Source: an uncultured Candidatus Saccharibacteria bacterium
GTDB lineage: Bacteria > Patescibacteriota > UBA1384 > XYA2-FULL-43-10 > 1-14-0-10-43-13
Direction: 5' to 3'
DNA length: 32,000 nucleotides
Assembly (NCBI GenBank): GCA_964543385.1
Contig: CAZIYE010000003.1
Coordinates: 21,590 to 53,589 of the forward strand
Shown here: positions 1 through 25,303 of the stretch, in pieces
Numbering within the stretch: the first letter of the stretch is position 1
Layout: the number at the start of each line of letters is the position of its first letter
The notes under the pieces: model-generated
Database searches by the model: none
What the model saw: the letters and a program-made list of their open reading frames with translations, nothing else
What the model was told of the DNA's origin: nothing
Program-made: the position numbers and the translations under genes

Positions 1-524
1 TCCCAATATTTTCTCGAATAAGTCATGCCATAATTTTCAAGCTGGCGTTTTCTGTAAATCCAGGCCAGACCTTCAGAGAAATCTGTTGCCTTTTCGAACT
101 CTGATTGACCGTTTTCGGTAACCAATGATTCACCTGTTTCGGTGCAAAATCCATAAGTTTGTTCAACTTTGCCAAACCCACCGTTCTTAGTTTGTTGAAA
201 ACGAACAATGCCATCATCAGAAAAATTGGAAAATCTCTTTTTCTGCCCGGCAAATGTTTCCACCGGCTGACCATCCTTATCAATGATCTTTGAGATCATA
301 CCATCGGGAATTGCAGTCATACCAAGATGAAATCGGTATTGCCTTGGATCATCGTCGGCCGATGTAAGCTTTCTCAAAATCACCGTGCCATCAGTTCTTA
401 AAAATGTAATTTTTCCTAATCTATTTACGGCTGCAACTCCTTCAGAAAACCGATCGGCCTTACCTGGATCAATTACTAGGATACGACCATCAGTCATATC
501 GGGATCTTTAATGAAATTCCCTTC
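1..524 (-). pseudogene. WG-repeat body of an array paralog, cut off from its N-terminal module by an in-frame TAG; runs off the left window edge
   Basis: The minus-strand frame of ORF 525..791 stays open for all 174 codons from 524 to the window edge (checked codon by codon). The translation EGNFIKDPDMTDGRILVIDPGKADRFSEGVAAVNRLGKITFLRTDG...FSDDGIVRFQQTKNGGFGKVEQ...ATDFSEGLAWIYRK carries FSEG(V/L)A-type WG-repeat motifs like the intact paralogs. Track ORF 23..283 is in another frame. Confidence 0.6.
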
Positions 525-791
525 CTAATCGACATAAACATCGCAGACTTTTCGCCTTGCTAGCGCACAGCCGTCATAAAAATCACCAACATAGTCTAGT
601 TCAAGCTTTTTCGACAGCCCCTGTCGCAGTTTGAGGTTGTATGGATATATGTTTTCAATCTCGACGATTGTATTCTGAATTTCCGAAATCAAAAACTGCG
701 CCTTGTCGATATTACCAGGCCGAGGATCAAGCAATATATCCTTTTGGCTAGATATTGACTGAATAAATTTTGTGACTTCTTGGCAATTCAT
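525..791 (-). CDS. N-terminal CxxhT-helix module only (88 aa); ends at TAG where paralogs continue into WG repeats
   Basis: MNCQEVTKFIQ... aligns with the N-termini of the other array genes (closest is MNCQEITNKIS of 14424..15677). It ends ...KLELDYVGDFYDGCALARRKVCDVYVD, just as the first WG repeat begins. The stop at 525-527 is TAG. Confidence 0.6.
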   Translation of the reverse strand: MNCQEVTKFIQSISSQKDILLDPRPGNIDKAQFLISEIQNTIVEIENIYPYNLKLRQGLSKKLELDYVGDFYDGCALARRKVCDVYVD

Positions 792-795
792 AGAT

Positions 796-2232
796 CTATT
801 TTACCTCAATTAGCTTGGTTTTGCTTGAGGTTGCCCGATTATTTTCAGCTGGAACAGGTACACGCATCAAAACAACACCGGTAATCTTGCGATCCATTTT
901 CACTCTTTTTTGCGCTTCTTCATAAGTTAAGTTTGGTGCTTCCAGAATCACAACACCGCCATCCATTTGGCTACAGAAATCACCATCAGGAATTGCTCGT
1001 AAGACCATGATGCCATCTTTTAGTCCTTTAGTTGGGTCACCAGAAATATTTGAGAGATCATCGATGACACAGAGGCCACGTTCTTTTTTCTTCCAATTTA
1101 GTAATTCATCTTCACTAGAAATAATTGGCGGATCTTCGTTTTCCAAATAATCGTAATATCCACGATTTTCGTCATAGCCATAAACCGGTTTTGTGAATTT
1201 ATCCTTAGTCTTCTCGGCCGGATCGGTAGTATCCTCCCTGGGCTGATTTATCAGGACTGTATAGTCAGGATCAGCAATGAGACGGGGGTGCATTGAACGT
1301 GTAAATATGATCGCTCCACCAGTTTTATTGTATGGTAAATGATAATAATAATCACCGATTATAAAAATCGCTCTGCCCGAACCGTTGGCCATATCTCCGC
1401 CAGTGCTTCCGGCCGTAAAGACTCCGCCGGAAGCACACCAACCAAATTTCTCACCGGCTCCTCTTGTATAGATACGGCCTCCTCGCATCAACATGCCAGT
1501 AACTTCGCCAATACTGTCAGCGTGGATCTCACCCCCCGACATTTGCATTGCCGTCATATTACCAATATTTTCTGCTTGAATTTGTCCTCCAGACATATAT
1601 TTTGCGCAAAAATTCCCTATGGATTCAGCCCTAAAAATACCCTTGCCCATATTGAGACCTGTATAATCGCACTTGTTTCGCCCCGAGTAACTGCTTTTCA
1701 CTTCTACATCTGAATTTGATTTGATCAAAGTATTTATAACCGCCGCTTTTATTGCGTCGATCAGCTCGTCTGTTTTGCTTTTTCGATCCTTCTCATCTTC
1801 AATATTTTCAAATAGCTTCCTCAATAAAACCTTATATTCGGAGTCATCTGCCGGATTTCCCAGCTTGTCATAAAACTGATGGATTTCTGATTTGCTGGCT
1901 TTTATCGGTAGCGGGGTAAATAATGCTTGAACCAAAGCATAGTAGGCGGAATTGTCAGTATCAGTTATCTGTTCTTTTATTTGTGGCATCTTCAAAAGCT
2001 CAATCAAGGTTCTGCCGAATTGAGGATCATTTATCCTGTCCTCGACAGCAGAAAGAGAGAAGTTTTCTCGGATAAATTCTTTGACAATGCCCTCTAAATA
2101 TTCTTTGTCTTGAAATAAATCCTTGATCTGACCCTTGCCAGGCACAGCCGTCTCCAAATCACGACAAAATTTATCGCCAGTCCTGGCAATATTTGTCATA
2201 TCTAAAGTAATTGCCTCACAAAATGAATTCAC
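796..2232 (-). CDS. Array paralog: N-terminal CxxhT module + helical region + GXGXG-type beta-helix repeats
   Basis: GTG start with GGAGGG Shine-Dalgarno 5 nt upstream. N-terminus is MNSFCEAIT. About 18-aa repeats follow: MSGGQIQAENIGNMTAMQ / MSGGEIHADSIGEVTGML / MRGGRIYTRGAGEKFGWC / ASGGVFTAGSTGG, as in the GXGXG domain of the glutamate synthase C-terminus and FwdC. The C-terminal ~75 aa are about 80% identical by eye to the next gene. Confidence 0.85.
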   Translation of the reverse strand: MNSFCEAITLDMTNIARTGDKFCRDLETAVPGKGQIKDLFQDKEYLEGIVKEFIRENFSLSAVEDRINDPQFGRTLIELLKMPQIKEQITDTDNSAYYALVQALFTPLPIKASKSEIHQFYDKLGNPADDSEYKVLLRKLFENIEDEKDRKSKTDELIDAIKAAVINTLIKSNSDVEVKSSYSGRNKCDYTGLNMGKGIFRAESIGNFCAKYMSGGQIQAENIGNMTAMQMSGGEIHADSIGEVTGMLMRGGRIYTRGAGEKFGWCASGGVFTAGSTGGDMANGSGRAIFIIGDYYYHLPYNKTGGAIIFTRSMHPRLIADPDYTVLINQPREDTTDPAEKTKDKFTKPVYGYDENRGYYDYLENEDPPIISSEDELLNWKKKERGLCVIDDLSNISGDPTKGLKDGIMVLRAIPDGDFCSQMDGGVVILEAPNLTYEEAQKRVKMDRKITGVVLMRVPVPAENNRATSSKTKLIEVK

Positions 2233-2257
2233 ACTGTCCCTCCGTATATTTGTATCT

Positions 2258-3673
2258 TTATTTTACCTCAATAAGTTTTGTTTTGCCGTCTATTTCCCCG
2301 TCTGTAATTCTCATAAGAACCACTCCTGTAATTTTTCGATCCATCTTAACAATTTCTTGCGCTTTTTTATAGGTCAGGAATGGCACTTCCAAAATCACAA
2401 CGCCGCCCTCCATTTGAGCGCAGATCTCGCCGTCAGGGATAGCTCGCAAGACCATTATCCCATCTTTGAGTCCTGCTGTCGGATCCCCAGAAATGTTTAA
2501 AAGCTCATCGATGAGGCAGAGACCGATTTTCTTTTCCTTCCACTCTGCCAGTTCCTGATCGTTTTTGGGAGAAAATATCTCATTGCCATGCAGGTGTTCA
2601 ATGTATTGCCCTTTTTCATCGTCATAACCGAAGATTTCCCCCTTCGTTTTTAACTCTTTTATCTGTTCCTTGCCAGAAATATTGAGACGGTTCACCAGTG
2701 CTGTGTACTTAATATCTGGCTCCAAGATATTGGCCACAGTAGTTTCGTTTGCAATAAAAACGCCCGATCTTTTCATCATCGGCAAGTCAAAAGCATGTCC
2801 AATGATAAAAATTGAATCGCTCGAGGAATTTCCTGCCGGATGATTAGCATAATCAGCAAAAAACACTCCGCCGCCGGCTATCCAGCCAAATTTTTCTCCG
2901 ACTGATCTAGCATAAATACGACCACCGTCCATCATCATGCCGGCACCATCGCCAATATTTTCACAATGAATTTCGCCGTCTTTCATAAATTGGGCGGCCA
3001 TATTTCCCACAGATTCTGCCTCGATCCGGCCACCCTTCATCGCATAGCCACAATGATCGCCGATGCTTGGCATTTTGATCAATCCTCTGGTCATATTAAA
3101 GCCAATGTAATCGCTCTTTTTTGTAGTTGATCCCTTATCTCCAATCTCAAGACGACCCTGGCTTTCCAGTACTCGATGGATTAGGGCAGTTTTCAAAGAA
3201 TCAATCAACTTCTTGATCTTGCTCTCATCACTCTTCCCCTCAACCTCGGGATATGCCAAAGCGACTACCTCCCGCAGCTTTTCATCCCATCTCATTCTCT
3301 TATAAAAATCATCCAATTCGTCAGCACTGTCGCTCTGAAGTAAGATTGGATATCTGGCAAAGACAAATTTGACCAAACTGTAAAGATTGACTTCATCTTT
3401 CTCAATATTTCGGATCACTTCTTCCTCCTTGAGCAGTTCGCCAAAGAGCCGCCAGTTGTCCGGATTTTCGATTCTCTCCAGATAGCCATTGACTGAAAAC
3501 TTATTTTTCATATATTCCGCCAAGTGCTCTTGAAAGAATTTTTGCATTTCCATGAGCTCAGCGACCTTGCCCTCGCCGGGCTTGGCAGCTCGTAAATCAT
3601 CACAAAAATACTGACCGGCTTCTGCGATCGTAAGTAAATCATTTGTCAGTTCTTCACACAAAGAATCAAACAC
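2258..3673 (-). CDS. Array paralog: N-terminal CxxhT module + GXGXG-type beta-helix repeats (tandem paralog of 796..2232)
   Basis: GTG start with GGAGGG SD. N-terminus is MFDSLCEELT. Repeats are MKGGRIEAESVGNMAAQF / MKDGEIHCENIGDGAGMM / MDGGRIYARSVGEKFGWI / AGGGVFFADY. It has the same C-terminal end, KTKLIEVK, as 796..2232. Confidence 0.85.
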   Translation of the reverse strand: MFDSLCEELTNDLLTIAEAGQYFCDDLRAAKPGEGKVAELMEMQKFFQEHLAEYMKNKFSVNGYLERIENPDNWRLFGELLKEEEVIRNIEKDEVNLYSLVKFVFARYPILLQSDSADELDDFYKRMRWDEKLREVVALAYPEVEGKSDESKIKKLIDSLKTALIHRVLESQGRLEIGDKGSTTKKSDYIGFNMTRGLIKMPSIGDHCGYAMKGGRIEAESVGNMAAQFMKDGEIHCENIGDGAGMMMDGGRIYARSVGEKFGWIAGGGVFFADYANHPAGNSSSDSIFIIGHAFDLPMMKRSGVFIANETTVANILEPDIKYTALVNRLNISGKEQIKELKTKGEIFGYDDEKGQYIEHLHGNEIFSPKNDQELAEWKEKKIGLCLIDELLNISGDPTAGLKDGIMVLRAIPDGEICAQMEGGVVILEVPFLTYKKAQEIVKMDRKITGVVLMRITDGEIDGKTKLIEVK

Positions 3674-3689
3674 TCACCCTCCAAAATAT

Positions 3690-5048
3690 TTATGAGAAAA
3701 CCCGTCTGCCTTTTTTATCGATATAGAACATATTATTATGGCCGTCGCTTAGAATTTTTCCGACCAAGGCAACACCGTCTTTAAACGGCTGTGCTGTTGT
3801 TATTCTCTCGTCAGATTCAATAATGCTTCCGTCTAATGTGATCAACTCCTGCTCACGTACGGTTGTTTGCAGTGCTCTCCCGTCTGATGTCGTGAAATTA
3901 AATTGTTCGCTAGGGCCACTAACAAATCCTAAACCTTCAGAAAAATCATGTATCACAAATCGCTCTCCTTCTCTCTCCAAGAGTATTTTTCCTGTAATGT
4001 CGACTAGGTGGTAGGAGCATATCTGTGGAGGCCCATTACTAATAGTCTTCTCAAAAAGTAGTAAGCCATCCTTTATTTTGCTATGAATAGGATTTATTTT
4101 TCCAAGAGACTCCGTCTGAAATTCACGAATAATTTTCCCATGAATATCAATAAGAAGGGTTTTCCCGTCCGCTGTTTGCACAAAAGCACGATCTTGGTAA
4201 AAATCAGTGGCACTCTCGAATCCTTGACCAAGTACACCTTCATTAAGATTTTCGCCTTTTTGATTTATAAAGTACCAAGAATTATTCGATCTATTTTTTC
4301 CAAATCGATCGCAAACTTTAGCAATACCGGTGTTTAGGTCACCCATACCATCTTCGAAGAATTTACTCGGATCTTTTGGTATCCTTTCCCCACTCGGAGC
4401 AACATGCCAAGCGCCAAAATCCGGCGTATGCAGCCCCAGATACCCAGAACCGCTCCAACGATCATCCATAATTCTCCCTATATCGATCGTCCTAATCTCA
4501 TTTCCTTTGTAATCAATCAGATGATATTTTTGTTTCTCCTCTTGCCCATGATAGCGAACAAGCGCCTGGCCAAATTTATATGAATTAGCTTCTCTATAAT
4601 TTTTATCGTCAATTCTTTTTCCATCAACATCGATATAATAATGTCCTTTTTGACCGCCAGAGGCTTCAATTGAAACCAACGCCAATCCTTCAGAGAAGTC
4701 CGAAATTTTGCATTTCTTGTCATTATCTTCAGAGAAAATGACCTCTCCTTTTTTATTAATCAAAATCTCGGGAGATTCTAGGCCTTCCAGTTTAAAAACG
4801 GCTTTTGCTAGTCCATATTCATTGAACTTTCCGACAAAAGAATAACCTTTTTCTTTGGCGATTCTATCTCGTAGCTCAACTTGGTCGCTGTCTAAAAATT
4901 CTAGAAGCTCTGCAATTTCCGATCTTATCTGTCTTTTTGTTTCCAAAGCAAGATTGAGCGGATTATTTTCGGTGACAACTAAACCAGGCGCGGTTCGAGC
5001 GACTTTTTTTATAAGATTCGTATAGTTTTCACAAGTTGGTGTAAACAT
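3690..5048 (-). CDS. Array paralog: N-terminal CxxhT module + WG-repeat (WG_beta_rep-like) body
   Basis: The track starts at TTG 5051. ATG at 5046-5048 gives MFTPTCENYT, identical to the paralog, and forms an ATGA overlap with the upstream stop. Repeated F-x-(E/D)-G-(L/V)-A ... Y-(I/F)-(D/N)-x-x-G motifs are present (FSEGLALV, FKDGVALV, YYIDVDGKRI, FYIDKKGRRVFS). Confidence 0.85.
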   Translation of the reverse strand: MFTPTCENYTNLIKKVARTAPGLVVTENNPLNLALETKRQIRSEIAELLEFLDSDQVELRDRIAKEKGYSFVGKFNEYGLAKAVFKLEGLESPEILINKKGEVIFSEDNDKKCKISDFSEGLALVSIEASGGQKGHYYIDVDGKRIDDKNYREANSYKFGQALVRYHGQEEKQKYHLIDYKGNEIRTIDIGRIMDDRWSGSGYLGLHTPDFGAWHVAPSGERIPKDPSKFFEDGMGDLNTGIAKVCDRFGKNRSNNSWYFINQKGENLNEGVLGQGFESATDFYQDRAFVQTADGKTLLIDIHGKIIREFQTESLGKINPIHSKIKDGLLLFEKTISNGPPQICSYHLVDITGKILLEREGERFVIHDFSEGLGFVSGPSEQFNFTTSDGRALQTTVREQELITLDGSIIESDERITTAQPFKDGVALVGKILSDGHNNMFYIDKKGRRVFS

Positions 5049-6370
5049 CAACTAAATACCCTTCTACCTTTTTTATCGATATAGACTGGATGACTAACTC
5101 GAAATCCATTCTTATCTCTTTCTACTGGATCATCATACGTGAATTTGGCTACGCCATTTTTGAAACCTATTTCCAATCGAGTCACAGGCTCTTCAATTTC
5201 TGCGAAATTACCATAGGTATCAACAAGATAATTTTTGCCCTCATGGGCCATGAAACTCAATCCCTCATGAAAAGGAGAGAAAACTTGTTGGTATTCTCCC
5301 TGGATTAGGACATTTCCGTTTAAATCCATGACTGTTCTGCCCTGCGTTGCAAGATTGCCATTTCGGTTGATGAAAGTAATTATCCCTTCGGAATAGGTGT
5401 GGCTTGCCTGTACAACCGAGCCGAGCTCTGACCTGTGACCTACCTCTTTAATTTTATCGCCTTTTGAATTGATAATCAAAATGTGCCCTTGGACGGTTTC
5501 GATAAAGGCCCTGTCATTATAAAAATTTGAAATAGCACGAAAATTCAATGATAATACCCCTTCATCAAGACGTTTACCGTTTTGGTCAATATAATACCAA
5601 GTTTGCCGTTCATGATCCGTAACACGTCCGTCCTGGCCCTTACCCAATCGATCACAGACCTTTGCGATACCGTTGTTTAGGTCGCCAGCACCATCCTCAA
5701 AATATTTGCTGGGGTCACTCGGAATTCTTTCGCCATTCGGCGAAATATACCATATCCCAGAACCGCTCTGGTGAACTTTCAAATATCCAGCGTCAGAACC
5801 TTCGAAATAGGCTGCCTCTGGAAGTTCGAATTCCCTGATTTGATTTCCCAATAAATCAATTATGGCATGGTTTTTCTTATTTGTTTCCCCGCGATATCTA
5901 ACAACTGCTTGGCCAAATTTATATGGGTGAGCTTCTTGATAAACTTTACCATTTAACCGTTGTCCATCTTCTTTGATATAATAGCTACCATTGGTTGATT
6001 CAATAATGGCGATTCCGTCAAAGAATTCTTTTATCAAGAAACTGTCTTGTTCACTTGGTAATATCTTTTCCCCACGCGCATTGATCAATACAGATGCCGC
6101 CTTAAAATTAGTATCTAACCTGGCTATCGCTAACCCATGCTTATTGAACTTATCTACAAATTTATAGCCTTTTTCTTTTGCGATCCGATCCCGTAATTCA
6201 ATCTGATCACCATTCATGAATTCAAGACATTGGGCAAGTTCATTTTGTACTTGCTTTTTTGTTTCTATTGCTGATTTGATTGGATGATTTTCGGTGACAA
6301 CTAAACCAGGCGCGGTTCGAGCGACTTTTTTTATAAGATTTGTATAGTTTTCACAAGTTGGTGTAAACAT
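5048..6370 (-). CDS. Array paralog: N-terminal CxxhT module + WG-repeat body
   Basis: MFTPTCENYTNLIKKVARTAPGLVVTEN is identical to the N-terminus of the downstream gene. WG-type motifs are FFDGIAII, FHEGLSFM, FKNGVAKF and YIDKKGRRVFS. The TGA stop overlaps the next start. Confidence 0.85.
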   Translation of the reverse strand: MFTPTCENYTNLIKKVARTAPGLVVTENHPIKSAIETKKQVQNELAQCLEFMNGDQIELRDRIAKEKGYKFVDKFNKHGLAIARLDTNFKAASVLINARGEKILPSEQDSFLIKEFFDGIAIIESTNGSYYIKEDGQRLNGKVYQEAHPYKFGQAVVRYRGETNKKNHAIIDLLGNQIREFELPEAAYFEGSDAGYLKVHQSGSGIWYISPNGERIPSDPSKYFEDGAGDLNNGIAKVCDRLGKGQDGRVTDHERQTWYYIDQNGKRLDEGVLSLNFRAISNFYNDRAFIETVQGHILIINSKGDKIKEVGHRSELGSVVQASHTYSEGIITFINRNGNLATQGRTVMDLNGNVLIQGEYQQVFSPFHEGLSFMAHEGKNYLVDTYGNFAEIEEPVTRLEIGFKNGVAKFTYDDPVERDKNGFRVSHPVYIDKKGRRVFS

Positions 6371-6375
6371 AATAT

Positions 6376-7260
6376 CTAAACCTCACTTCCATCGAAAAAA
6401 TACCAGGCCTTTTCATGGTAAACGACAACCCCATCTGGATGTGCGCTGAAGGTTATATCCTCAGCGCCAAATTTATCCGTTAAATCAACAAGGACTTTTG
6501 TATTGTTTAAATAAATTTTTCCGTCACGCTTAATCAAAAAGCCCCTTGGATGACCGCGCCAGCTTGCTTTTTCGCCGGAATATAGGGCTTGGCCAGTATG
6601 CAAGCGAATTTCCAGATTATTCCAGTCCGAGTAGCCAAGCAATACACCTCTTTCTGTCACATCCCAATTCGACAATTCCATTGATACATTTGATATATTA
6701 CTTTTCTCAATCGGGATTGGATTATCTCTGTCGCCATTAAGAAGAAATTCATCTGTATTTTTGTTATAAACGACACAATCGTTGCCAAAGACACGAAAAT
6801 CAAATTGACCATTGCGATCACTAGTAAAAACCCTCTTTCGGCTTGCCCTATTAAACAAATAATCGAAGTCCATATGCGCATCAGTACTTTTATAAAAGAG
6901 GCTACTCGCCGAAGAGATAACTTGGTCTCGAGGTGCCTTAGATCCAAGCCCATGCCACTGTCCAAGCGGATCGACATAACGTATGCTATCACTATCAGAG
7001 ATCAATATCCCATCTTTAAAAGACTGCCAACTACTATACCTATTATTAGATCGAGCTATAACTTCGCCATTAGTATATTTTTTCCATTCACGATAATGGC
7101 GTTCAGAAAAATGTATCTCTAATAAATCTTCGAGCTCCTGTTTTATCTCTATCGCTTCCTCGACGATTTTGTTTATCGACAAAACATTTTTCATTTCACT
7201 ATCCGTGTCTTGCAGGCCCCTCAAAACGTTTGTAAATTTTTGGCAGTCATACCCAATCAT
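6376..7260 (-). CDS. Array paralog: N-terminal CxxhT module + unassigned beta-rich body (possibly degenerate WG-like)
   Basis: N-terminus is MIGYDCQKFT. The body has weak FKDGILIS...IRYVDPLGQW and FLIKRDGKIYL motifs and no recognisable catalytic motif. Its start overlaps the upstream stop (ATGA). Confidence 0.75.
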   Translation of the reverse strand: MIGYDCQKFTNVLRGLQDTDSEMKNVLSINKIVEEAIEIKQELEDLLEIHFSERHYREWKKYTNGEVIARSNNRYSSWQSFKDGILISDSDSIRYVDPLGQWHGLGSKAPRDQVISSASSLFYKSTDAHMDFDYLFNRASRKRVFTSDRNGQFDFRVFGNDCVVYNKNTDEFLLNGDRDNPIPIEKSNISNVSMELSNWDVTERGVLLGYSDWNNLEIRLHTGQALYSGEKASWRGHPRGFLIKRDGKIYLNNTKVLVDLTDKFGAEDITFSAHPDGVVVYHEKAWYFFDGSEV

Positions 7261-8537: not shown

Positions 8538-8549
8538 ACTGTTTCATAC

Positions 8550-9860: not shown

Positions 9861-9883
9861 ATGATTATTCTACCTCAAGATAT

Positions 9884-12112: not shown

Positions 12113-12116
12113 AAAT

Positions 12117-13277: not shown

Positions 13278-13278
13278 T

Positions 13279-17173: not shown

Positions 17174-18896
17174 CGGAATCGGTGAGTGTTAGTACAACCG
17201 ATTTGTCTAATTTATTTCCGAATTCTTCCGATAGTTCTTTCTTGGGGATTGCGTCAGAATTCATAGTACAAATATACTGAAAACCAAACTCGTTTGATTT
17301 TTTTTCTGCGAGCTCTAACGCTTTGGCAACTTGCCGTTCATCAACGCCGTCAAATATAGTCGAATCGTGTATCAAGAACGGCTTGCCATCATTAAATCTA
17401 GACCACAGCTCTGCCAACATAAGGTCATAGCAAAATATTTTCATATTGCTAATTCCCTGACTACCGGCTCTCTTGATCTCAACATCAAATTTGTAGCCAA
17501 AATCAGTTGTTTCTATTGAAAGCAATCCCGGCTCTTCATAGAGGTACTCAGAATTTGCATTAAAAATACTGATTGCCCTATCCCTGTTCGGTTTACGATC
17601 ATCAAAGTCTCTTCTCATGCCTTTCAGGAGTTCTTCTTTCCTTATTCTTAAATCTCCAACACCATCATTAAATTTCTTCAGGTTAGCAATCCTTTGATTT
17701 ATCTCGGATAATCTTTGGTTAAGCGAATTACTCCTCTCTTGAAGTTTGGAATATTCGTCCAGTGCCCCTTGTGTTTGAAGAATACTCATCAACTTTGCTT
17801 TATCTTTGGTGAGTTTCTCAACCTGCTCTTTGTCTTCGACAATTTTATCAGACAGTTTTTTTATCTCAGATGATAGATAGTCTCGCCTATTTTTAACTAT
17901 GTCTTTATGAAATGTCTCTATCTCTTCAAATTTTCGTACGGTACCAGACGAAAAGACTGCGCCTGCCTGTTTAAAAATTCTTTCGATTTCTTCCTTTTGA
18001 AAAGAGAAATCTTCCGAGTCATCTTCTTGGTACTTCTTTGACAGCTGCTCATTTAAATTAATTGTATTAAGCAGTGAATGAGTTTGACCCGTAATCGCAT
18101 CAGCTTCTTTTTGAATCTCATAATATTGAGGATGCACAACAAAAGATGATATTTGTTTCCCAACCTTGTTTATCGTTTCCTCGAGACGCACTCTTTCTGC
18201 GTCCAGTTCTCCGAGTGACCCAAAATAATTTTCTAGTAATCCAGAACTAGCTGCTTTTTTAAGTCCACTTAAGGTTTTTTCATCATCTTTAATTAGTTGT
18301 AACTCTGAAGAATACTCCCAATCTAGCCCCAAAAGATAGCTATTGTTTATCTGTACGTCTGACGAGGACTGTCTTGAGAAATGCCGAAATGGCTCGTCAA
18401 AGGAGCCTGTGCCAGTCCTAATAAAATAAGAGATGAGGCTTCTATAGCTTGGATGATAAGAGAAAGTCTCGCTCAATTTTTCTGTAACACCAAATAGAAG
18501 CTTACCCATTGATACATTAAAGTCTTTAGCCTTAAAAACCGAATGTCCGTTTTCGGCTAAATTCGGCTTTGTTAGCCAATCAGAAAAGTCGCCTTCCCCT
18601 TCAATTTCATTTGGAGAAGAAGTATTTCGTAGAAAAGTATAGACTTTTTCACCAAGTTCAACCTTTACAGAAAAAACAACGTTCTCTAGTTCCTCTTTCT
18701 TCAATGACGAATTAAGATTGGCTCCGAGACAAAAATCTACAATATTGATTAGCGTGGTTTTGCCCAGACCGTTTCTTGAATCTTTGCTTTTGGATTCTCT
18801 GGTTCTTTCTGCTATGACCATGTTGAAATTATTATCCGTATTTAAACGGACACTTCGAAAGGTTTCCTTGCTTGAATTTATTTCTAAAACTTTCAT
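17139..18896 (-). CDS. Coiled-coil ABC/SMC-like ATPase of an ABC-3C-type three-component system
   Basis: Walker A is SRNGLGKTTL near the N-terminus. A long heptad-rich insert covers roughly aa 230-430 (EIKKLSDKIVEDKEQVEKLTKDKAKLMSILQ...). A signature-like GSQGISN and Walker B/D-loop PFLIHDSTIFDGVD follow. The start overlaps the preceding small gene (ATGA). Confidence 0.75.
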   Translation of the reverse strand: MKVLEINSSKETFRSVRLNTDNNFNMVIAERTRESKSKDSRNGLGKTTLINIVDFCLGANLNSSLKKEELENVVFSVKVELGEKVYTFLRNTSSPNEIEGEGDFSDWLTKPNLAENGHSVFKAKDFNVSMGKLLFGVTEKLSETFSYHPSYRSLISYFIRTGTGSFDEPFRHFSRQSSSDVQINNSYLLGLDWEYSSELQLIKDDEKTLSGLKKAASSGLLENYFGSLGELDAERVRLEETINKVGKQISSFVVHPQYYEIQKEADAITGQTHSLLNTINLNEQLSKKYQEDDSEDFSFQKEEIERIFKQAGAVFSSGTVRKFEEIETFHKDIVKNRRDYLSSEIKKLSDKIVEDKEQVEKLTKDKAKLMSILQTQGALDEYSKLQERSNSLNQRLSEINQRIANLKKFNDGVGDLRIRKEELLKGMRRDFDDRKPNRDRAISIFNANSEYLYEEPGLLSIETTDFGYKFDVEIKRAGSQGISNMKIFCYDLMLAELWSRFNDGKPFLIHDSTIFDGVDERQVAKALELAEKKSNEFGFQYICTMNSDAIPKKELSEEFGNKLDKSVVLTLTDSDETGCLLGKRF

Positions 18897-19117
18897 CTCT
18901 TTTGAATTAACAATCCATCTCTTAAATCAACCAAGCCAACAGAAAATAAGAAATCCAACCCATAAATAAACTTATCAAACGAATTTATTTCGGGTACCCT
19001 TCTGGATTTTTCCCAAAGCCTTGTGACAGTGGTTGAATCTTGCATAAATGTCAAAATTCTTGCGCTAATACCCATTATTGAATTATTGAATGATATATTT
19101 TTATCTGGAAAAATCAT
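18893..19117 (-). CDS. Small (74 aa) helical middle component of the ABC-3C-type module
   Basis: Its size and position fit: it abuts the HNH gene stop and overlaps the ATPase start by 4 nt. The sequence is helical and has no enzymatic motif. The assignment rests on gene order in the described ABC-3C architecture. Confidence 0.55.
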   Translation of the reverse strand: MIFPDKNISFNNSIMGISARILTFMQDSTTVTRLWEKSRRVPEINSFDKFIYGLDFLFSVGLVDLRDGLLIQKR

Positions 19118-19858
19118 TTACTCCTTTTCAAAAATATCGCAAATCGTGAAAAAATAGGTAAGGACTGACAGCGCTGCTGCTCTATACTCAAATTCATAAT
19201 GACCATTTGAAGCGAAATTCCACATCTCGTAAAACAAATCATCTCCACTGCAACTGCTTCTTGCCTCTTGGTACTTTCCAACAAATTTATTTCTTACTTT
19301 GTTTGAGAAGTTTACATCAGGATGACGATTAAAATAATCTCTAACCTGATTTTCTTGTAACATTCCTATCTTGACCAAGGTTTCAACGCTATTGCTCAGC
19401 TCATTTTTGGCAATTTTTTCTTTCGGGCTAATTACTGTGTAAGAAACTTCGCTTTCAGATGTATCTTTTAGAAAATCAAGTATAACTTCCAAATCTGAGA
19501 ATGTAACATTCAGGACGGCTGATTTCAGTTTGTCTTCAACAGATTTCTCATGTGTTTCTTTTTGCTTGAGCAGCTTTCCGGTTGTATATGTTACCTCGTC
19601 CTTATCAATTTTTGTGTGGCATGTTGGACACAAAACCATCAGATTGCTATTCTTATTCAATAAATCTACAGGATAATTTTTGTCATAGCGTGCAGCCTTC
19701 GGCTTTTCACCATTAATATGAGCCATTTCTCCAATCGGGAAAAGCCCTTTGCTCGTCGAAGAAGATTCTTCGCAAAGTTCACAGTAGCAAATGGCGCAGT
19801 GATTTCCACATTTGCCCCAGACTACTTTTATTTCCGGCTCGTTAATACGCGATGACAT
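19118..19858 (-). CDS. HNH nuclease effector with C-terminal helical domain (ABC-3C effector architecture)
   Basis: Cys cluster CGNHCAICYCELC, then EMAHINGEKP and NLMVLCPTCHTKIDKD, gives the HNH/zinc-finger core. The C-terminal ~130 aa are helical with no other motif. Confidence 0.8.
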   Translation of the reverse strand: MSSRINEPEIKVVWGKCGNHCAICYCELCEESSSTSKGLFPIGEMAHINGEKPKAARYDKNYPVDLLNKNSNLMVLCPTCHTKIDKDEVTYTTGKLLKQKETHEKSVEDKLKSAVLNVTFSDLEVILDFLKDTSESEVSYTVISPKEKIAKNELSNSVETLVKIGMLQENQVRDYFNRHPDVNFSNKVRNKFVGKYQEARSSCSGDDLFYEMWNFASNGHYEFEYRAAALSVLTYFFTICDIFEKE

Positions 19859-19895
19859 ATTATTATTTTAACTGATTAAGGCTCTTTTTCCAATG

Positions 19896-20519
19896 CTATG
19901 GATTCCCACTCAAAAACACTCTGGGATTAACTGGAATCCCAAATATATTGATCTGAAAATGCAGATGAGGGCCTGTTGACCAACCGGTATTGCCTCTGGT
20001 GCCGATTATTTTGCCAAGTTCTACTTCATCGCCCTCTTGAACAGCGATTGAATCCAAATGCCCATAAATAGTGACTATGTGATGTCCATGATCTATCTCA
20101 ACATGCTTGCCAAAGCCAGTGGCTGTCTCTCCGGCATATATTACTTTCCCCTCCATAAAAGCACCGACTGGATCGCCGACTTCATGAGTCGGGCTTGCTA
20201 TGTCAATGCCGGTATGAAAAAGCTGGTAAGGTGAGAGTTGTCCGAACTCTAGCGAGACTGGTCCGGTAATTGGCCAGATTCTTGGCTGAGTGATTGTCTC
20301 GATAACCGAGCCATCTGCTGGATCATGAATCTCGACTAGTGAAGTAATCGGATTGATGGAAGTTAAGACATCAGAGACAAAGTTAAAACCGGCTTGAGTG
20401 AGAAGTATGACCGTAATCACTGGCAATAGACAGATTATAATGACGGTTGTAAAAAGAAGCTTGATCTCTTTCTTCATTGAAAGAAGAGAGACAATCAGCT
20501 TTAGAGTTTGCGGATTCAT
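19896..20519 (-). CDS. Membrane-anchored M23 (LytM-type) peptidoglycan metallopeptidase, T4SS-associated
   Basis: An N-terminal TM segment (LLFTTVIIICLLPVITVILL) is followed by the M23 motifs HTGIDIA, DHGHHIVTIYGHL and GPHLHFQI. It overlaps the virB4 stop by 4 nt. Confidence 0.9.
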   Translation of the reverse strand: MNPQTLKLIVSLLSMKKEIKLLFTTVIIICLLPVITVILLTQAGFNFVSDVLTSINPITSLVEIHDPADGSVIETITQPRIWPITGPVSLEFGQLSPYQLFHTGIDIASPTHEVGDPVGAFMEGKVIYAGETATGFGKHVEIDHGHHIVTIYGHLDSIAVQEGDEVELGKIIGTRGNTGWSTGPHLHFQINIFGIPVNPRVFLSGNP

Positions 20520-22306
20520 TGTTTCTTTACAGCAACTTCGCTTGGGTCGGTAGTGATGAGCGGATGTTCTTTCTCCGAAGCAGTGATCTTAACGGCGACA
20601 TGATGCTGGTCGGCAATAATGAGAGCCTCGCCTCGCTCACAGGTAAGTAAGAACCTTTGCTCGAACTCGCTTAAATGAAACTCCGAGGCGACACCTTTAA
20701 TAGTAGTGGTGTCCTGCCTCATCAAGAGTCTTAGCGAGCTTTGAGAAGCGATAGCGCGGCCATAAGCATTGCCGAGGAAGTCATTAGCCTGCTGGGAGAT
20801 GATGCTTACGCCCAAATAGTACTTTCTAGCCCGCCTGACCAGGCCTGCAACGAATCTGGCACTCTCTTCGTGCTCGAGGAGCAACCAAGCTTCATCGATG
20901 ACGAGGATCCGTTTACAAGGGTCTGATTTGACTTGATTCTGAACAAATTGAGCGATGACCAGATGCATGATCTGGCGCATTGATTCCGGCAGATCCTTGG
21001 TATCGAAAACTACCAATCTGTTATCTAGCTCGATGTTGGTTTGGGTATCGAATACCTTTGAAAGAGATCCGGTCGTATACTTTTCCAGCCGGCGGCAAAG
21101 CTTGACCTGTTTCATAGTTCGAAGTGTGGCATAAAGATCATAGAGTTTCGGATATGTTCTGGCGCTTTTCTTTTTGATTGAGTTTTTCTGCGTCCAACCG
21201 GCTTTTTGGTAAGTCTTGATGATTGCTTTATCGACAACAGATTTTTCTTCGGCAGATAATCCTTCGGCCATGAGCGAGACTATTTCGGTCAATGATTGGA
21301 TATGGTCGGCGAAGCCCTCTTCCTCTGAAAAAGCATTTACTTCCAAGTCAAAGGGATTGATCTTTTCTTTGGAGTGAACTGAGAGCTTGATATTAGTTCC
21401 TCCAACTGACTCGGCGAGCCTTTTGTACTCCCGTTCCGGATCGATGACGATAACCTTTGTTCCTTGCATCAGATGACGCAGGATTTCGACCTTGGCGGTG
21501 TAACTTTTACCTGAGCCAGATTGAGCAAATAGAATACTGTTGGCATTTGGCAAACTAAACCTGTCCAAAATGACTAGCGAACTGTTGGATCTGTTAATCC
21601 CATAGAGTACGCCTGATTCGTGCACTAACTCTGAAGAGATGAAAGGAAAAGTCAAAGCAGCAGACGAGCTATCGAGATTTCTTTTCTGAGCCAGCTGGTT
21701 ATCACATCTTGGGAGTACCGATTGCAAACCCTCGATCTGCTGGAATACTGCTGGTTTGGTATAGAAAAGTCTTGTTGCCAGGACAGTATCAAGGAGCTTG
21801 ATTGTTTTGTTTAATTCAGCGAGTGTTTCTGCTGATAAAGTAATATACAAAGAAACTTGAAAGAGGTTTTCTTGTCCTCGTTGAATCTTATCTCGCAGTT
21901 CCAGCGCTGAGTCTAATGGGTCGGTTAATTCCGAGCTGATAATCTTGCCAGCCCGCTCCATCGCTCTTTTCGTCGATATTAGTTCAGTAATCTTGCGGTT
22001 CAACTTCGGCAAAGCCAAAGTAGCGTCCACCGGCTCGATATGGTAAGCAATATCGACATTGTGATTGAAGTTAATGAGATGATTAAGCCAGCCGCTTGTG
22101 GCAGTATATGGATAGCCAGAGACATAAAGAGTTCGGACATACCGGCCATCAATTTCTAGATGGTTTTCAGTTTCAGTTAATCCTGAATAAGTAATCAGAT
22201 CGAGCTGATCCTGATCGCCGACATGAAAAGAGATAGCGAGATTCTTGTCTTTAGGTTTGTTGGCTGCTTTTGGTTTTCGCTTTGTTTTAGAAAATATTTT
22301 TATCAT
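20516..22306 (-). CDS. virB4: VirB4-family T4SS ATPase (middle plus ATPase domains)
   Basis: Walker A is AQSGSGKSYTAK and Walker B is RILVIDEAWLLL, followed by SIISQQANDF. The upstream VirB4-type segment is GRYVRTLYVSGYPYTATSGWLNHL...DIAYHIEPVD. Confidence 0.9.
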   Translation of the reverse strand: MIKIFSKTKRKPKAANKPKDKNLAISFHVGDQDQLDLITYSGLTETENHLEIDGRYVRTLYVSGYPYTATSGWLNHLINFNHNVDIAYHIEPVDATLALPKLNRKITELISTKRAMERAGKIISSELTDPLDSALELRDKIQRGQENLFQVSLYITLSAETLAELNKTIKLLDTVLATRLFYTKPAVFQQIEGLQSVLPRCDNQLAQKRNLDSSSAALTFPFISSELVHESGVLYGINRSNSSLVILDRFSLPNANSILFAQSGSGKSYTAKVEILRHLMQGTKVIVIDPEREYKRLAESVGGTNIKLSVHSKEKINPFDLEVNAFSEEEGFADHIQSLTEIVSLMAEGLSAEEKSVVDKAIIKTYQKAGWTQKNSIKKKSARTYPKLYDLYATLRTMKQVKLCRRLEKYTTGSLSKVFDTQTNIELDNRLVVFDTKDLPESMRQIMHLVIAQFVQNQVKSDPCKRILVIDEAWLLLEHEESARFVAGLVRRARKYYLGVSIISQQANDFLGNAYGRAIASQSSLRLLMRQDTTTIKGVASEFHLSEFEQRFLLTCERGEALIIADQHHVAVKITASEKEHPLITTDPSEVAVKKQ

Positions 22307-22904
22307 TTGTCTTCCTTATTATCTCCTTAGCTAAAGGCTGAATCTTGGCTTGTTCTGGCCGGTAGAAGCTGTAGAAGAGGTCCAGAATTTCCAAGCTTGT
22401 TAATGGCCGAGCCGTCATGCCGATCTTTTCTAGTCCTTTGATGATGATCTCCTGTTCCAGCATAAGTTGTTCTTTGGCAGTCTGGAAATCCACCTTGCCT
22501 TTATTGTCATGAGGGATAACCAGATAGAACCTGCGGGATAAAATCTTGTTGCCGGAGACCAGCTTCTTGATAAACTCCGAGTAGTTGGCGAGCTGATGTT
22601 TGTAGATCTCTTGCGTTTCGCTCTGCAGTTTGTTGTGAAATTCTTCTAGGTACCGATCAATGTCCAGCTCTCTGATTCGGACTAAGATCTGTACTGGAAT
22701 GGTCAAGCTGTTCAGGAATGCTTGAAAGGCTTCGACGACGACATCCTGCTCTTCCTCGCTTTGGAGTTCAAAGTTAAGAGAGGAAGTGGATAATATTGCC
22801 CGATAACGGTTGTCCGGTAAAACCAGGAGGCCATCTTTGACCTCTTTGATCCCGATCTGGCTTCTGGCCGAACCCTTGATCTTATTGTTGCTTGAGTATG
22901 ACAT
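22287..22904 (-). CDS. Separate ORF resembling the extreme N-terminal domain of Gram-positive VirB4/TrsE/Orf16-type ATPases
   Basis: IKEVKDGLLVLPDNRYRAILSTSSLNFELQSEEEQDVVVEAFQAFLNSLTIPVQILV matches the start of long VirB4 homologues (remembered pattern: pinf-L-s-eE ... f-fLn-l). It overlaps virB4 by 20 nt in another frame. Confidence 0.6.
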   Translation of the reverse strand: MSYSSNNKIKGSARSQIGIKEVKDGLLVLPDNRYRAILSTSSLNFELQSEEEQDVVVEAFQAFLNSLTIPVQILVRIRELDIDRYLEEFHNKLQSETQEIYKHQLANYSEFIKKLVSGNKILSRRFYLVIPHDNKGKVDFQTAKEQLMLEQEIIIKGLEKIGMTARPLTSLEILDLFYSFYRPEQAKIQPLAKEIIRKTNDKNIF

Positions 22905-23388
22905 CTACGCCTCCTTTCTTGGATGGTTTAAAAGAGATGGACAGAGAATCGTTGTCGAAGATCTTATCTATATTGATCGATTCGACTAAGGTTAGGGATT
23001 CTTGTTTATCTTTCTCTGTCATTTTGTTTTGAGTCCGTTCTACTGGAATCGTCACGTTTTCTTTTTCTTCAATAATTTCCCGATAGATCGGATCATTCTT
23101 GGTAAAGATATATTGCCGAGGCCTAGCCTTGAATCGCAAGAAGACGATCAGCCAATCAGCTACAATCTTGCCATTTATTCTTAGCGCCAAGCCGCCGAGG
23201 AATGAAAATTGAAGCAAAATTAGTACAAGCTTAATCTGGGACAAATGCATCTTTGGCGCTAGCATTGCATAGATACCTAAGCCCACGATCATAGAGAAAA
23301 CCAAAAGGACAATTTGTTGCAAGGTGAAGCTTCCAGCGATCCGATCCTCAACAGTGGTAATTTGTGCTGGTACTACCGTAGTCTTCAT
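22882..23388 (-). CDS. PrgI/VirB3-like small T4SS membrane protein
   Basis: The N-terminus is ...TTVEDRIAGSFTLQQIVLLVFSMIVGLGIY, followed by a second TM segment (LVLILLQFSFLGGLAL). It sits immediately upstream of the VirB4 genes, as in Gram-positive T4SS loci. Confidence 0.6.
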   Translation of the reverse strand: MKTTVVPAQITTVEDRIAGSFTLQQIVLLVFSMIVGLGIYAMLAPKMHLSQIKLVLILLQFSFLGGLALRINGKIVADWLIVFLRFKARPRQYIFTKNDPIYREIIEEKENVTIPVERTQNKMTEKDKQESLTLVESINIDKIFDNDSLSISFKPSKKGGVDVILKQQ

Positions 23389-24671
23389 CGAGCCCTCACT
23401 CTCTTGACCGCTTCTTTGGCTGCACCGGCACTAGCTTCACTTTTAACATTGGCACTGCTGATCACATTGATTATCTGTCCGCCGAGTTTCTTCATTGAAT
23501 TGGTTGTACCGCTGGCAAGAGCCAGCTGTACAGTCATGGCCGTACTCTTTAGGAGGATTGAGAATAAGGCAATGCCGATCAGAATTGAGATAACCGGATT
23601 GGCGCCGACCTGATCGGGCACAGTCAGAAATGCTGAGGCTAACTGAATAATCACAACATGGATAAAGACTGTAAAAATTGTGACAAAATATGCCTTGAAT
23701 AGGTTTCCGGCAAAGTCAGCCATACTTGGAATCAAGGCCAAAGAGCAAACCAACGGCGAGATAACGGCGCCAAAGGCTAGGATCATCAGCCTCGAGATGT
23801 AGAACAGCAGTAGGATTGCCGCCAGAACTATGAAGACAATCGTAAAGATTAAAGTTATCAATGCGGTTTGTCCGCTTAGAAGAGCCGCCGGACTAAAAGC
23901 GTTCATAATCCAAGCACTGCCAAGTCCGCCAGTAGCATGAAGTACGGCGTTGACCATTGTTTGGCTAAGCTGAATAATCCAATCAATCAGAAAGATCGAG
24001 GTATTAGCGCCAACAAAGGCTAGAGCTACTTTTGGCCAGATATCTTTCAAAGTCAATTCTTCCATACCGAAGGTTGGAGAACTCATCACCCGAAAACCGA
24101 GAAGAGCAATGACAATGGCAAAGAGCGAATCAGTAATTCCAACCATAATTAGCCAGAAGTTAAAGACAACCGAATTACTGGCCAGCCCTGGCGTACTGGT
24201 CAAAAACCAAGTAATACCATCAAAGACCGGCTTAGTGGCAGACTGGATGATGTTCTGCAGAAAGCCTGAGATAGCGTCCATCAAGACCTGAGCCAGTGAG
24301 TTATCGTGAGGCGCAAGCTGAATTTCGCTAAGGCTCAAAGTAGTGCCGACAGCATTGCCGGCAGGATTAGTCATGGCATCGCCTAAGATTCTAGAAAAGA
24401 CAAAAGCGCCGATGACAATCACCAAACCGATCAATGCATTCTTGATCGTTCTCTTTGCTTCATCGAGTGCCGCCGGATTACCCGTCGAAGTGATATATAA
24501 ATATCCTCCCCTAACGAGGAAGAAAACTGTGGCAACAGAAGCTAGACCGACCAGAGCGGTCATAGCATCATGCGTAAAGTTCTCAACTTCAAGATTGGAT
24601 GCGGCAAAGGCAGTCGCAGGCAGGAAGATAAGTACAGCAAAAAGAATTAATTTTGACCAAAATCTTTTCAT
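23385..24671 (-). CDS. VirB6/TrbL-like polytopic T4SS membrane protein with an N-terminal pilin-like domain
   Basis: It has a signal peptide MKRFWSKLILFAVLIFLPATAFA and several later hydrophobic spans. Residues ~36-105 (VENFTHDAMTALVGLASVATVFFLVRGGYLYITSTGNPAALDEAKRTIKNALIGLVIVIGAFVFS) parallel the adjacent pilin-like protein. Confidence 0.7.
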   Translation of the reverse strand: MKRFWSKLILFAVLIFLPATAFAASNLEVENFTHDAMTALVGLASVATVFFLVRGGYLYITSTGNPAALDEAKRTIKNALIGLVIVIGAFVFSRILGDAMTNPAGNAVGTTLSLSEIQLAPHDNSLAQVLMDAISGFLQNIIQSATKPVFDGITWFLTSTPGLASNSVVFNFWLIMVGITDSLFAIVIALLGFRVMSSPTFGMEELTLKDIWPKVALAFVGANTSIFLIDWIIQLSQTMVNAVLHATGGLGSAWIMNAFSPAALLSGQTALITLIFTIVFIVLAAILLLFYISRLMILAFGAVISPLVCSLALIPSMADFAGNLFKAYFVTIFTVFIHVVIIQLASAFLTVPDQVGANPVISILIGIALFSILLKSTAMTVQLALASGTTNSMKKLGGQIINVISSANVKSEASAGAAKEAVKRVRAR

Positions 24672-24678
24672 CAGCCGA

Positions 24679-25029
24679 TTAATTAAATGCGTTTTTGGCT
24701 AAATCGGTGACGATGTTCGAGATGACAAAGGCAGCGATCGATACTGCAAGACCGATGCTTGAGTAAAGAATCGTTTTTTTTGATTTATCCAAATTCTCAG
24801 GATTTCCAGAACTTGTGATATATCCGATGCCCCCAACTACAAAAAAACCGGCTGCTAACAGGCCGGCAAGTGTGACCAGAACTTGGATAACATTTTGAGC
24901 AAAGTTTTGAACTTTTCCAAGATCCCCAGAATCAGCAAGCGCAGGTGTTGCTGAAAGCAAGAGGACAATTAGTGAGAACCCAATAGAGCAGAGACGTTGT
25001 AACATGACAAACCAACCTTCTCCCCTCAC
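24679..25029 (-). CDS. TrbC/VirB2-like T4SS pilin-like protein
   Basis: A signal-like segment LIVLLLSATPALA precedes two hydrophobic helices that flank GGIGYITSSGNPENLDKSKK. The track start is GTG 25029. ATG at 25003-25005 (MLQRLCS...) is an equally plausible start. Confidence 0.7.
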   Translation of the reverse strand: MRGEGWFVMLQRLCSIGFSLIVLLLSATPALADSGDLGKVQNFAQNVIQVLVTLAGLLAAGFFVVGGIGYITSSGNPENLDKSKKTILYSSIGLAVSIAAFVISNIVTDLAKNAFN

Positions 25030-25174
25030 TTGTTATTTAATTGTTTGCCTTTGTCTACCTAAAGATGAACGAAGGGTAAGCAATTAAACTTTGGAGGAAA
25101 TATTTGTATGAAGTTGTGTGAACTAAGTTCAATATATGTAGCAATTGCTTGCTTGTCAAGAGGCAGTGACAAAT

Positions 25175-25246
25175 TTGACAGATAAACAGTTATTTATATG
25201 ATATTTTCATACATTATTTGACAACTCCTAAATAGTTCGTTAGATT
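25175..25246 (+). promoter_or_regulatory. Two tandem candidate sigma70-type promoters for the coupling-protein gene
   Basis: The first is TTGACA (25175-25180), 16 nt spacer, TATGAT (25197-25202). The second is TTGACA (25218-25223), 17 nt spacer, TAGATT (25241-25246). Both lie upstream of the GTG start at 25304. Confidence 0.4.
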
Positions 25247-25303
25247 GTAGCCAATTGCTTCAATAAGTTTTAAGTAGCTTAATGGAGGTGGGAAAGGGGC
25301 TAA

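Follow-up and report, generated by a model that had tools for sequence, protein, structure and literature searches.

T4SS, ABC-3C and paralog-array genes packed in one same-strand run are probably a mosaic of unrelated modules in a Patescibacterial conjugative element

We analyzed a stretch of 32,000 nucleotides (nt) from an uncultured Candidatus Saccharibacteria bacterium (contig CAZIYE010000003.1 of assembly GCA_964543385.1, positions 21,590 to 53,589), hereafter the window, in which genes of a type IV secretion system (T4SS), an ABC three-component (ABC-3C) module and an array of paralogous genes follow each other tightly on the minus strand. Our analysis indicates that this run is probably a mosaic of three unrelated modules carried by a ~53-kb Patescibacterial integrative and conjugative element (ICE), and not one functional unit. 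Module 1 (25159-19896) would be the mating-pair-formation operon of the element itself, read from a conserved promoter and ending at the stop codon of an M23 peptidase gene, and two unrelated cargos would have taken the slot behind M23 in the same orientation. The first cargo, module 2 (19858-17139), would be a self-contained ABC-3C cassette of the PDC-M68 type, and the second, module 3 (17062 to beyond the window), an array of ~24 paralogs that would belong with a MoxR-like ATPase, a protein with HExxH and VWA domains and a small acidic protein. By analogy with known systems, this MoxR-VWA machine may dock, remodel or process the paralogs via their common N-terminal module. Transcripts of the T4SS genes may read into the cargo, which would be a by-product of the packing and not a sign of common function. 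We observed borders between the modules, an independent distribution of each module and a conserved T4SS promoter.

The contig (C3, 53.6 kb) belongs to a genome of 0.90 Mb assembled in four contigs, and the window takes up the final 32 kb of C3. Several relatives from the same order are held in records labelled Candidatus Berkelbacteria.

Transfer operon and its relatives

We searched 41 related genomes for the VirB4 protein of the window. A mobile-type VirB4 with 75-95% identity was found in 13 of the 41 relatives, scattered over genera and families, and a chromosomal paralog with ~40% identity was present in 40 of the 41 genomes, including the genome under study. The patchy occurrence of the 75-95% copies across genera and families is the pattern of a mobile element. 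Twelve mobile-type elements were fetched and their genes were mapped against the contig proteins. A species-level scan (one genome per species) gave 380 VirB4 relatives, and all locus counts below are from the best 80 (67-95% identity), which come from records labelled Berkelbacteria, Saccharibacteria, WWE3, Microgenomates and others. The T4SS block of the window comprises a predicted promoter and six genes, with protein lengths given in amino acids (aa):

25131-25159, minus strand: predicted T4SS operon promoter (-35 TTGACA, 17 nt, -10 TATATT), in a divergent control region common with the gene for the T4SS coupling protein fused to a relaxase-like domain
24679-25005, minus strand: VirB2/TrbC-type pilin (Pfam T4SS_pilin, TrbC)
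23385-24671, minus strand: 428-aa membrane protein with a pilin-like N-terminus (Pfam T4SS_pilin at residues 31-94)
22882-23388, minus strand: PrgI-family T4SS membrane protein (Pfam PrgI; 72/80 elements)
22287-22904, minus strand: conserved 205-aa T4SS-block protein, without Pfam family (77/80 related elements)
20516-22306, minus strand: VirB4-type T4SS ATPase, mobile type (Pfam TraG P-loop, AAA_10, CagE_TrbE_VirB)
19896-20519, minus strand: M23 peptidase (cell-wall hydrolase), final gene of the T4SS block (Pfam Peptidase_M23)

All 12 fetched elements carry the pilin, pilin-like, PrgI, 205-aa, VirB4 and M23 genes with a matching overlap pattern, and the T4SS genes recur in 63-80 of the best 80 loci. 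As an example, the 428-aa pilin-like protein has an identity of 62-79% across the 12 fetched relatives and occurs in 67 of the 80 elements. The promoter candidate matches the consensus at 11 of 12 positions, and its -35 box CTTGACAAG is invariant in 10 of 10 aligned related elements. The conservation of this predicted promoter is thus well supported, and an earlier reading made from the sequence only, which had placed the control of the T4SS genes in the region 25030-25303, is borne out on this point.

Conservation stops at the end of the M23 gene. Using blastn, the homology of the window to each of the 12 fetched elements ends at 19892-19924, the M23 stop codon being at 19896. Beyond M23 the gene order of these elements differs by lineage, and only the six T4SS genes stay together. 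A serine recombinase gene follows M23 in five of the fetched relatives, type I restriction-modification genes on the opposite strand in three, and same-strand genes for GmrSD, an MmeI-type enzyme and a helicase in one; a KAP NTPase is also found among the cargo of relatives. Where 3 kb or more of sequence lies beyond M23 (58 loci), the gene after it keeps the orientation of M23 in 35 loci and is reversed in 23, and same-strand continuation past M23 covers 1-9 genes only. None of the 12 fetched elements runs on into ABC-3C or array genes, and the ABC-3C proteins, the array proteins and the partner proteins of the array described below had no match in the best 80 T4SS loci, even at E<=1e-3. On these gene maps, the site directly behind M23 is the predicted variable, defence-rich cargo slot of this element family. 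The family, with a fixed six-gene transfer operon and a cargo slot, extends over many Patescibacterial lineages (VirB4 identity 67-95%) and is relevant to an open question, namely whether the T4SSs of Patescibacteria are still conjugative (PMC12102498).

Paralog array and its partner genes

Module 3 opens with the following genes in the window:

15674-17062, minus strand: first array gene, N-terminal Cys-helix module and GXGXG-like beta-helix (TTG start placed by motif and Shine-Dalgarno (SD) sequence)
3-15677, minus strand: twelve further array genes with WG beta-propeller, beta-helix, TPR and other bodies (Pfam, paralogy and common N-terminal Cys-helix module)

The array extends past the window. 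Its Cys motif, searched as a regular expression, marks 21 genes, all of them on C3, and three more were recognized by eye, which brings the array to ~24 paralogs. In an AF2 model of a WG paralog (pLDDT 76, pTM 0.70), three helices start from the Cys and are followed by a beta-propeller, and the model also gave beta-propeller fold matches. No signal peptide or membrane segment was found in the array paralogs by hydropathy, and a literature search on the WG-repeat family gave nothing relevant.

The array is accompanied by a trio of genes that lie 10-17 kb past the left window edge:

C3:4487-11065, minus strand: 1095-aa protein with HExxH motif and predicted VWA domain, 975-aa MoxR/AAA_5 ATPase and 109-aa acidic protein

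Two more Cys-motif genes (C3:2154-4484) follow the trio. The 1095-aa protein has its HExxH at residue 145 and the VWA MIDAS motif DxSGS at residue 852; in the ~1100-aa family to which it belongs the HExxH is invariant, and both motifs are present in the protein of the genome under study. Pfam returned only faint VWA and metallopeptidase hints on this family, and the VWA assignment therefore rests on the DxSGS motif and on a fold search. For the latter, an AlphaFold prediction (mean pLDDT 65.5) for a homolog with 58% identity was used. It had 64 fold matches at E<=0.001, and the best 50 of the 64 all contain a VWA domain, including NorD of the NorQ-NorD complex. Together, motif and predicted fold argue that the ~1100-aa protein carries a VWA domain. 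The 975-aa ATPase has AAA_5 and GvpN-like matches and 28 relatives in a large protein collection. Sequence and profile searches of the PDB with the 975-aa and 1095-aa proteins gave nothing useful.

We then considered where else such arrays occur. Of 44 genomes of the order, only two contain the two main paralog families: the genome under study and a genome of another genus in the same family (G002). In G002, contig C46 carries a 65-kb same-strand array of ~50 Cys-motif genes, which amounts to ~6% of its 1.1-Mb genome and has far larger intergenic gaps (up to 450 nt) than the ICE-borne copy. This array ends in homologs (36-47% identity) of the 1095-aa protein, the 975-aa AAA_5 ATPase and the 109-aa acidic protein, and an M3/M2-family peptidase gene lies at the end of its contig. 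Neither a mobile-type VirB4 nor an ABC-3C ATPase was detected in the G002 assembly. The trio is also present in seven of seven metagenomic contexts (with lengths of ~1000 aa for the AAA_5 protein, 66-122 aa for the small protein and 1000-1130 aa for the counterpart of the 1095-aa protein), together with 0-12 adjacent genes whose products begin with a short leader followed by an invariant Cys and a helix; the Cys motif varies between lineages as NCQEIT, NCPQLK, TCLQLK and LCPELT. The flanks of these seven contexts, where identifiable, are mostly housekeeping genes (PGI, transketolase, ClpB, Mur ligase, CysS, SecA), and no T4SS structural genes or ABC-3C genes adjoin them. Judged from these neighbourhoods, the constant companions of the array are a predicted MoxR-type ATPase and its putative VWA cofactor. 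This defined partner set (MoxR-like ATPase and HExxH-VWA protein) gives a concrete testable hypothesis for the array.

Three observations on individual genes stand apart from this comparison. The tandem WG paralogs 3690-5051 and 5048-6370 have an identical N-terminal peptide, MFTPTCENYTNLIKKVART, at an overall protein identity of 43%, a pattern suggestive of gene conversion or recombination in the conserved 5' module. Another WG paralog is split, with an 88-aa ORF for the N-terminal module (525-791) and a 325-aa body that crosses the window edge (3-497; C3:21109-22086); the two open reading frames (ORFs) share a frame and are separated by one TAG (525-527), which could be due to a pseudogene, a sequencing error or read-through. 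Finally, the 246-aa gene at C3:1386-2126 has a weak similarity (30% over 81 aa) to a neighbour of the closest trio, which is a hint only.

ABC-3C cassette

Between the T4SS block and the array lies a triplet of genes that corresponds to the PADLOC candidate system PDC-M68:

19118-19858, minus strand: ABC-3C effector with an HNH nuclease N-domain and CTD10 (Pfam CTD10 2e-08; PADLOC PDC-M68A 2e-63; HNH effector matches)
18893-19117, minus strand: ABC-3C middle component MC6 (Pfam MC6 1e-15)
17139-18896, minus strand: ABC-3C ABC ATPase of the DUF2326/YydD type (Pfam DUF2326 5e-41; PADLOC PDC-M68B 1e-176)

Among the 44 sampled genomes of the order, the ABC-3C ATPase was found only in the genome under study, and a large protein collection gave at least 797 bacterial and archaeal homologs, the best of them 51% identical. 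In three other contexts we found an isolated CTD10-MC6-ABC triplet with gene order and overlaps unchanged; its neighbours are housekeeping, toxin-antitoxin or restriction-modification genes, and gaps of 150-430 nt precede it. Gene content and context thus identify the triplet as a self-contained three-gene cassette with a putative anti-phage role.

Junctions and extent of the run

From 25029 down to base 3, each substantial ORF is on the minus strand according to the ORF listing and junction arithmetic, as the sequence-only reading had described. The junction geometry that it gave was largely reproduced. We recomputed 4-nt overlaps at all seven positions (23385, 20516, 18893, 15674, 14424, 7257 and 5048); it had read them all as ATGA, which fails at 5048, where the overlap reads TTGA and a paralog-supported ATG at 5048 would leave an overlap of 1 nt. 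The longer overlaps 22882-22904 and 22287-22306 proved to be 23 nt and 20 nt. The remaining gaps within the run, given earlier as 1-37 nt, are 0-37 nt, so that the maximum stands and the minimum does not. The first array gene has an SD sequence (GGGAGGG) before TTG 17062 and the N-terminal Cys motif of its family behind it, and with this start the gap before the array is therefore 76 nt, as proposed. At the other end of the run, the GTG at 25029 taken as the pilin start falls inside a conserved ribosome-binding segment. Since the ATG at 25005 and its preceding ribosome-binding site are conserved in most related elements, the pilin most likely starts at ATG 25005.

The run had been described as 22 genes up to the window edge. 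The run itself is real, but the window holds 23 of its ORFs, counting the two parts of the split WG paralog, and the minus-strand genes pass the window edge for another 19.4 kb to C3:2154, to a total of ~37 genes and 44.5 kb. Between the 23 ORFs of the window the spacing is -35 to +76 nt, and it is at most 76 nt throughout the ~37-gene run. Using a crude whole-genome ORF map and requiring the same strand and every gap to be at most 80 nt, we found this run to be the tightest of the genome, with 28-37 genes compared to 12 for the runner-up. The packing of the run exceeds chance expectation. An SD-like motif precedes ~16 of 22 starts, in agreement with the earlier statement that most downstream starts carry one, and the translational coupling suggested from these junctions holds inside each module, the overlap pattern recurring in related T4SS blocks and in the isolated ABC-3C triplets. 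As an operon finding alone, this would be ordinary; same-strand tight packing, often read as common function, can mislead in compact Patescibacterial genomes.

Module borders, promoters and terminators

The module borders are the two widest gaps of the window (37 and 76 nt), a coincidence with a chance of 1 in 231 for 22 junctions. Base composition also changes at the end of M23. The T4SS genes have a GC content of 0.41-0.46 and a G-C skew of ~0; GC content is 0.31-0.375 for the ABC-3C genes and 0.39-0.43 for the array, with a cargo skew of +0.09 to +0.26 (coding-strand G excess). GC content at third codon positions (GC3) steps at the same place. The features of the two gaps are as follows:

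19859-19895, minus strand: module border 1, 37-nt gap with the candidate promoter TTGGAA-17-TAAAAT, of which the -10 ends 6 nt before ATG 19858; no SD sequence
17063-17138, minus strand: module border 2, 76-nt gap with a perfect TATAAT (17092-17087) and a predicted hairpin that pairs CUCUCU with the SD GGGAGGG

The gaps had been considered too short for a terminator plus a promoter. To evaluate this point for the 37-nt gap, we looked at the genes of the genome that lack an SD sequence and have at least 60 nt upstream: among them, -10-like hexamers peak 6-8 nt before the start (14, 12 and 10 compared to ~4 elsewhere). Leaderless promoters are a real and apparently sizeable class in this Patescibacterium, and a complete promoter therefore fits the 37-nt gap, which holds a full -35/-10 pair in leaderless geometry. 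We consider that the ABC-3C cassette probably has its own leaderless promoter in this gap.

In the 76-nt gap, the TATAAT at 17092-17087 would yield an 18-nt leader carrying the SD sequence. The same gap can fold into a two-tier hairpin (17063-17111, minus strand) with the TATAAT box in its loop, a fold z of -2.2 to -2.6 and a U-run after it. Translation could then depend on the start site of the transcript, and, with low confidence, the hairpin may damp the translation of read-through transcripts. Further along the run, a 67-nt gap before the 1095-aa gene of the trio holds a promoter-like site with 10 of 12 consensus positions and an extended -10. As predictions, these sites speak against a run without internal promoters.

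Regarding terminators, the sequence-only reading is supported in that no strong intrinsic one was predicted within the run, where no hairpin comes close in fold z to the two control terminators described below. At the M23 border there was no significant RNA structure (z = -0.7 compared to shuffles). One hairpin (19943-19920) was considered a possible terminator of the T4SS genes but was discarded: its sequence is part of the M23 gene and codes for the conserved peptide GIPVNPRVFL, relatives do not maintain its pairing register on visual comparison, and the region folds no better than shuffles. As no strong terminator was predicted, read-through from the T4SS promoter is therefore possible.

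Frame of the element

Plus-strand genes of the element frame and a pair of control terminators lie in the rest of the window:

25304-28996, plus strand: T4SS coupling protein fused to Replic_Relax, ICE backbone, divergent (Pfam TrwB_AAD_bind, TraG-D_C, Replic_Relax)
29005-29035 and 29392-29430, minus strand: two strong intrinsic terminators (13- and 16-bp stems), each behind one of two paralogous DUF3768 genes
30438-31979, plus strand: large serine recombinase at the contig end (Pfam Resolvase, Recombinase, Zn_ribbon_recom)

The DUF3768 terminators, used as controls, had fold z values of -5.9 and -6.1. Rfam gave no match in the window. Homologs of the coupling protein-Replic_Relax fusion were found in 29 of the 80 loci, of the recombinase in 24 and of a PLD-family gene in 37; this PLD gene lies at the far end of the contig and has homologs in the cargo ends of related elements. 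The Replic_Relax domain (8e-07) fused to the coupling protein is the sole relaxase-like match by Pfam, no MOB-class search having been made. Relaxases have been reported absent from most T4SS clusters of Patescibacteria (PMC12102498), and the fusion may be the relaxase reported to be missing there.

Both ends of the contig lead to a tRNA-Met locus. The final 44 nt of the contig (window 31957-32000) are the 3' half of a tRNA-Met found at the end of contig C4, with one mismatch, and the first 55 nt of C3 recur at the ends of C1 and C4; at the C1 end they lie immediately 3' of another tRNA-Met. The element appears to occupy a tandem tRNA-Met locus, with a flanking repeat of ~100 nt or longer. Of the features expected for an ICE, we found mating-pair-formation genes with a coupling protein, and a patchy, horizontally spread VirB4 distribution. 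We infer that C3 is one integrated ~53-kb ICE at the tRNA-Met locus and that its part from M23 to the PLD gene (~39 kb) is cargo.

Alternative explanations

Several observations weigh against a mosaic of unrelated modules. It is unusual for relatives of the element to pack unrelated cargo so tightly on one strand, and some selection for co-expression in this element is possible. The promoter candidates are imperfect, since the site in the 37-nt gap matches the consensus at 9 of 12 positions and the one in the 76-nt gap has a weak -35. No convincing terminator was found between the modules, only weak hairpins inside coding sequence, and one long transcript across the modules is possible. Moreover, one of the seven array contexts (L065) has a TrwB-like gene 8 kb away, and the array proteins could in principle be substrates of a second, chromosomal T4SS, which gene neighbourhood would not reveal.

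A bolder version of the mosaic, which we hold to be rather unlikely, is that a complete and otherwise chromosomal array with its trio was captured whole by a broad-host-range conjugative element and packed head-to-tail behind the transfer operon, so that the induction of conjugation raises its expression by read-through. If true, the element would carry a repertoire of binding proteins that can be transferred between cells and that a chaperone-peptidase machine services. Such a repertoire, for host-cell or partner recognition or as a new diversified set of immune sensors, would then spread between ultra-small bacteria.

It is also unlikely that the modules are unrelated but that the cargo lacks a working promoter of its own and is expressed only by read-through upon induction of the conjugation operon. 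The lack of a terminator after M23, the moderate matches of the internal promoters and the possibility that the hairpin in the 76-nt gap modulates rather than blocks expression are compatible with this explanation. However, the HNH gene has no SD sequence and a -10 ending 6 nt before its ATG, a geometry ~three-fold enriched among the SD-less genes, a perfect TATAAT precedes the array leader, and the 10/12 site with its extended -10 precedes the 1095-aa gene. In addition, a defence cassette switched on solely during transfer would protect little.

The sequence-only reading had favoured one polycistronic operon transcribed from the region 25030-25303 and had tied the array functionally to secretion, to the defence-type module or to both; in such an operon, the array would work with the T4SS as substrates or accessory proteins, with ABC-3C as sensors or targets, or with both. 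The single strand with gaps of at most 76 nt, the tightest packing of the genome and the absence of a strong predicted terminator are what such an operon would look like, and array proteins without a signal peptide would need a dedicated route for export. However, 0 of 92 related T4SS elements (0/80 and 0/12) carry the array or ABC-3C, arrays occur in G002 and in the seven metagenomic contexts without both neighbours, and ABC-3C triplets stand alone elsewhere. The constant partners of the array are the MoxR-like ATPase and the VWA protein, and promoter-like sites lie in both border gaps. A set of T4SS substrates in particular fits poorly with an array that is absent from 92 of 92 T4SS elements and present in G002 without a mobile-type T4SS. 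The proposed functional tie does not hold, arrays without T4SS or ABC-3C neighbours being an outcome that the sequence-only reading itself had named as refuting it, and we regard the single operon as quite improbable.

Finally, a chimeric contig that fuses an ICE to a chromosomal array is highly improbable: a sharp composition step and a homology break at one point, in a metagenome-type assembly of four contigs whose ends have common k-mer overlaps, would suit an artefact, but the array is bracketed by ICE genes (M23 on one side and, on the other, a PLD-family gene with homologs near the T4SS in 37 of 80 loci), tRNA-Met-locus sequence at both contig ends would require two independent misjoins, and the junctions are clean intergenic gaps with intact genes.

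Comparison with known systems

ABC-3C conflict systems were reportedly defined by Krishnan, Burroughs, Iyer and Aravind in NAR in 2020. The triplet of the window has the same genes, order and overlaps as ABC-3C / PDC-M68, with a CTD10 effector, MC6 and an ABC ATPase with a DUF2326 C-terminus. We found no structural difference, and the only distinction is that it is the lone copy among the 44 genomes of the order. The PADLOC guilt-by-embedding preprint makes no mention of PDC-M entries such as PDC-M68.

MoxR-vWA-centric ternary conflict systems, including a beta-propeller-containing subtype, have been described mainly from multicellular bacteria, in a paper in which the word Patescibacteria is absent (Kaur, Burroughs, Iyer, Aravind, eLife 2020; PMC7159879). 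As in these systems, a MoxR/AAA_5-type AAA+ ATPase adjoins a protein with a VWA MIDAS motif, the pair is associated with fast-diversifying beta-propeller and TPR repeat proteins and with small helical proteins not seen elsewhere, and there is no conventional effector. In contrast, the ATPase is ~975 aa long here compared to ~300 aa for a typical MoxR, and the VWA protein has an N-terminal HExxH domain, no beta-propeller domain being detected in it. Pfam families for VMAP, iSTAND, FtsH or a VWA-fused beta-propeller were not found in any gene of the run. The third component also differs, since it consists here of 0 to ~50 paralogs with a common N-terminal Cys-led helix module.

The element as a whole resembles the ICEs of monoderm bacteria (MPF-FATA-like, ICESt3/Tn916-class). 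These likewise have a compact and coupled transfer operon (pilin, PrgI, VirB4 and cell-wall hydrolase), a coupling protein and a recombinase at one end, a position next to a tRNA gene (apparent here from the contig ends), a variable cargo region with defence genes, and a distribution that is patchy across genera. Unlike them, the element described here resides in a Patescibacterium and has its coupling protein fused to Replic_Relax, and its cargo takes up ~39 of 53 kb, all of it co-oriented with the transfer operon.

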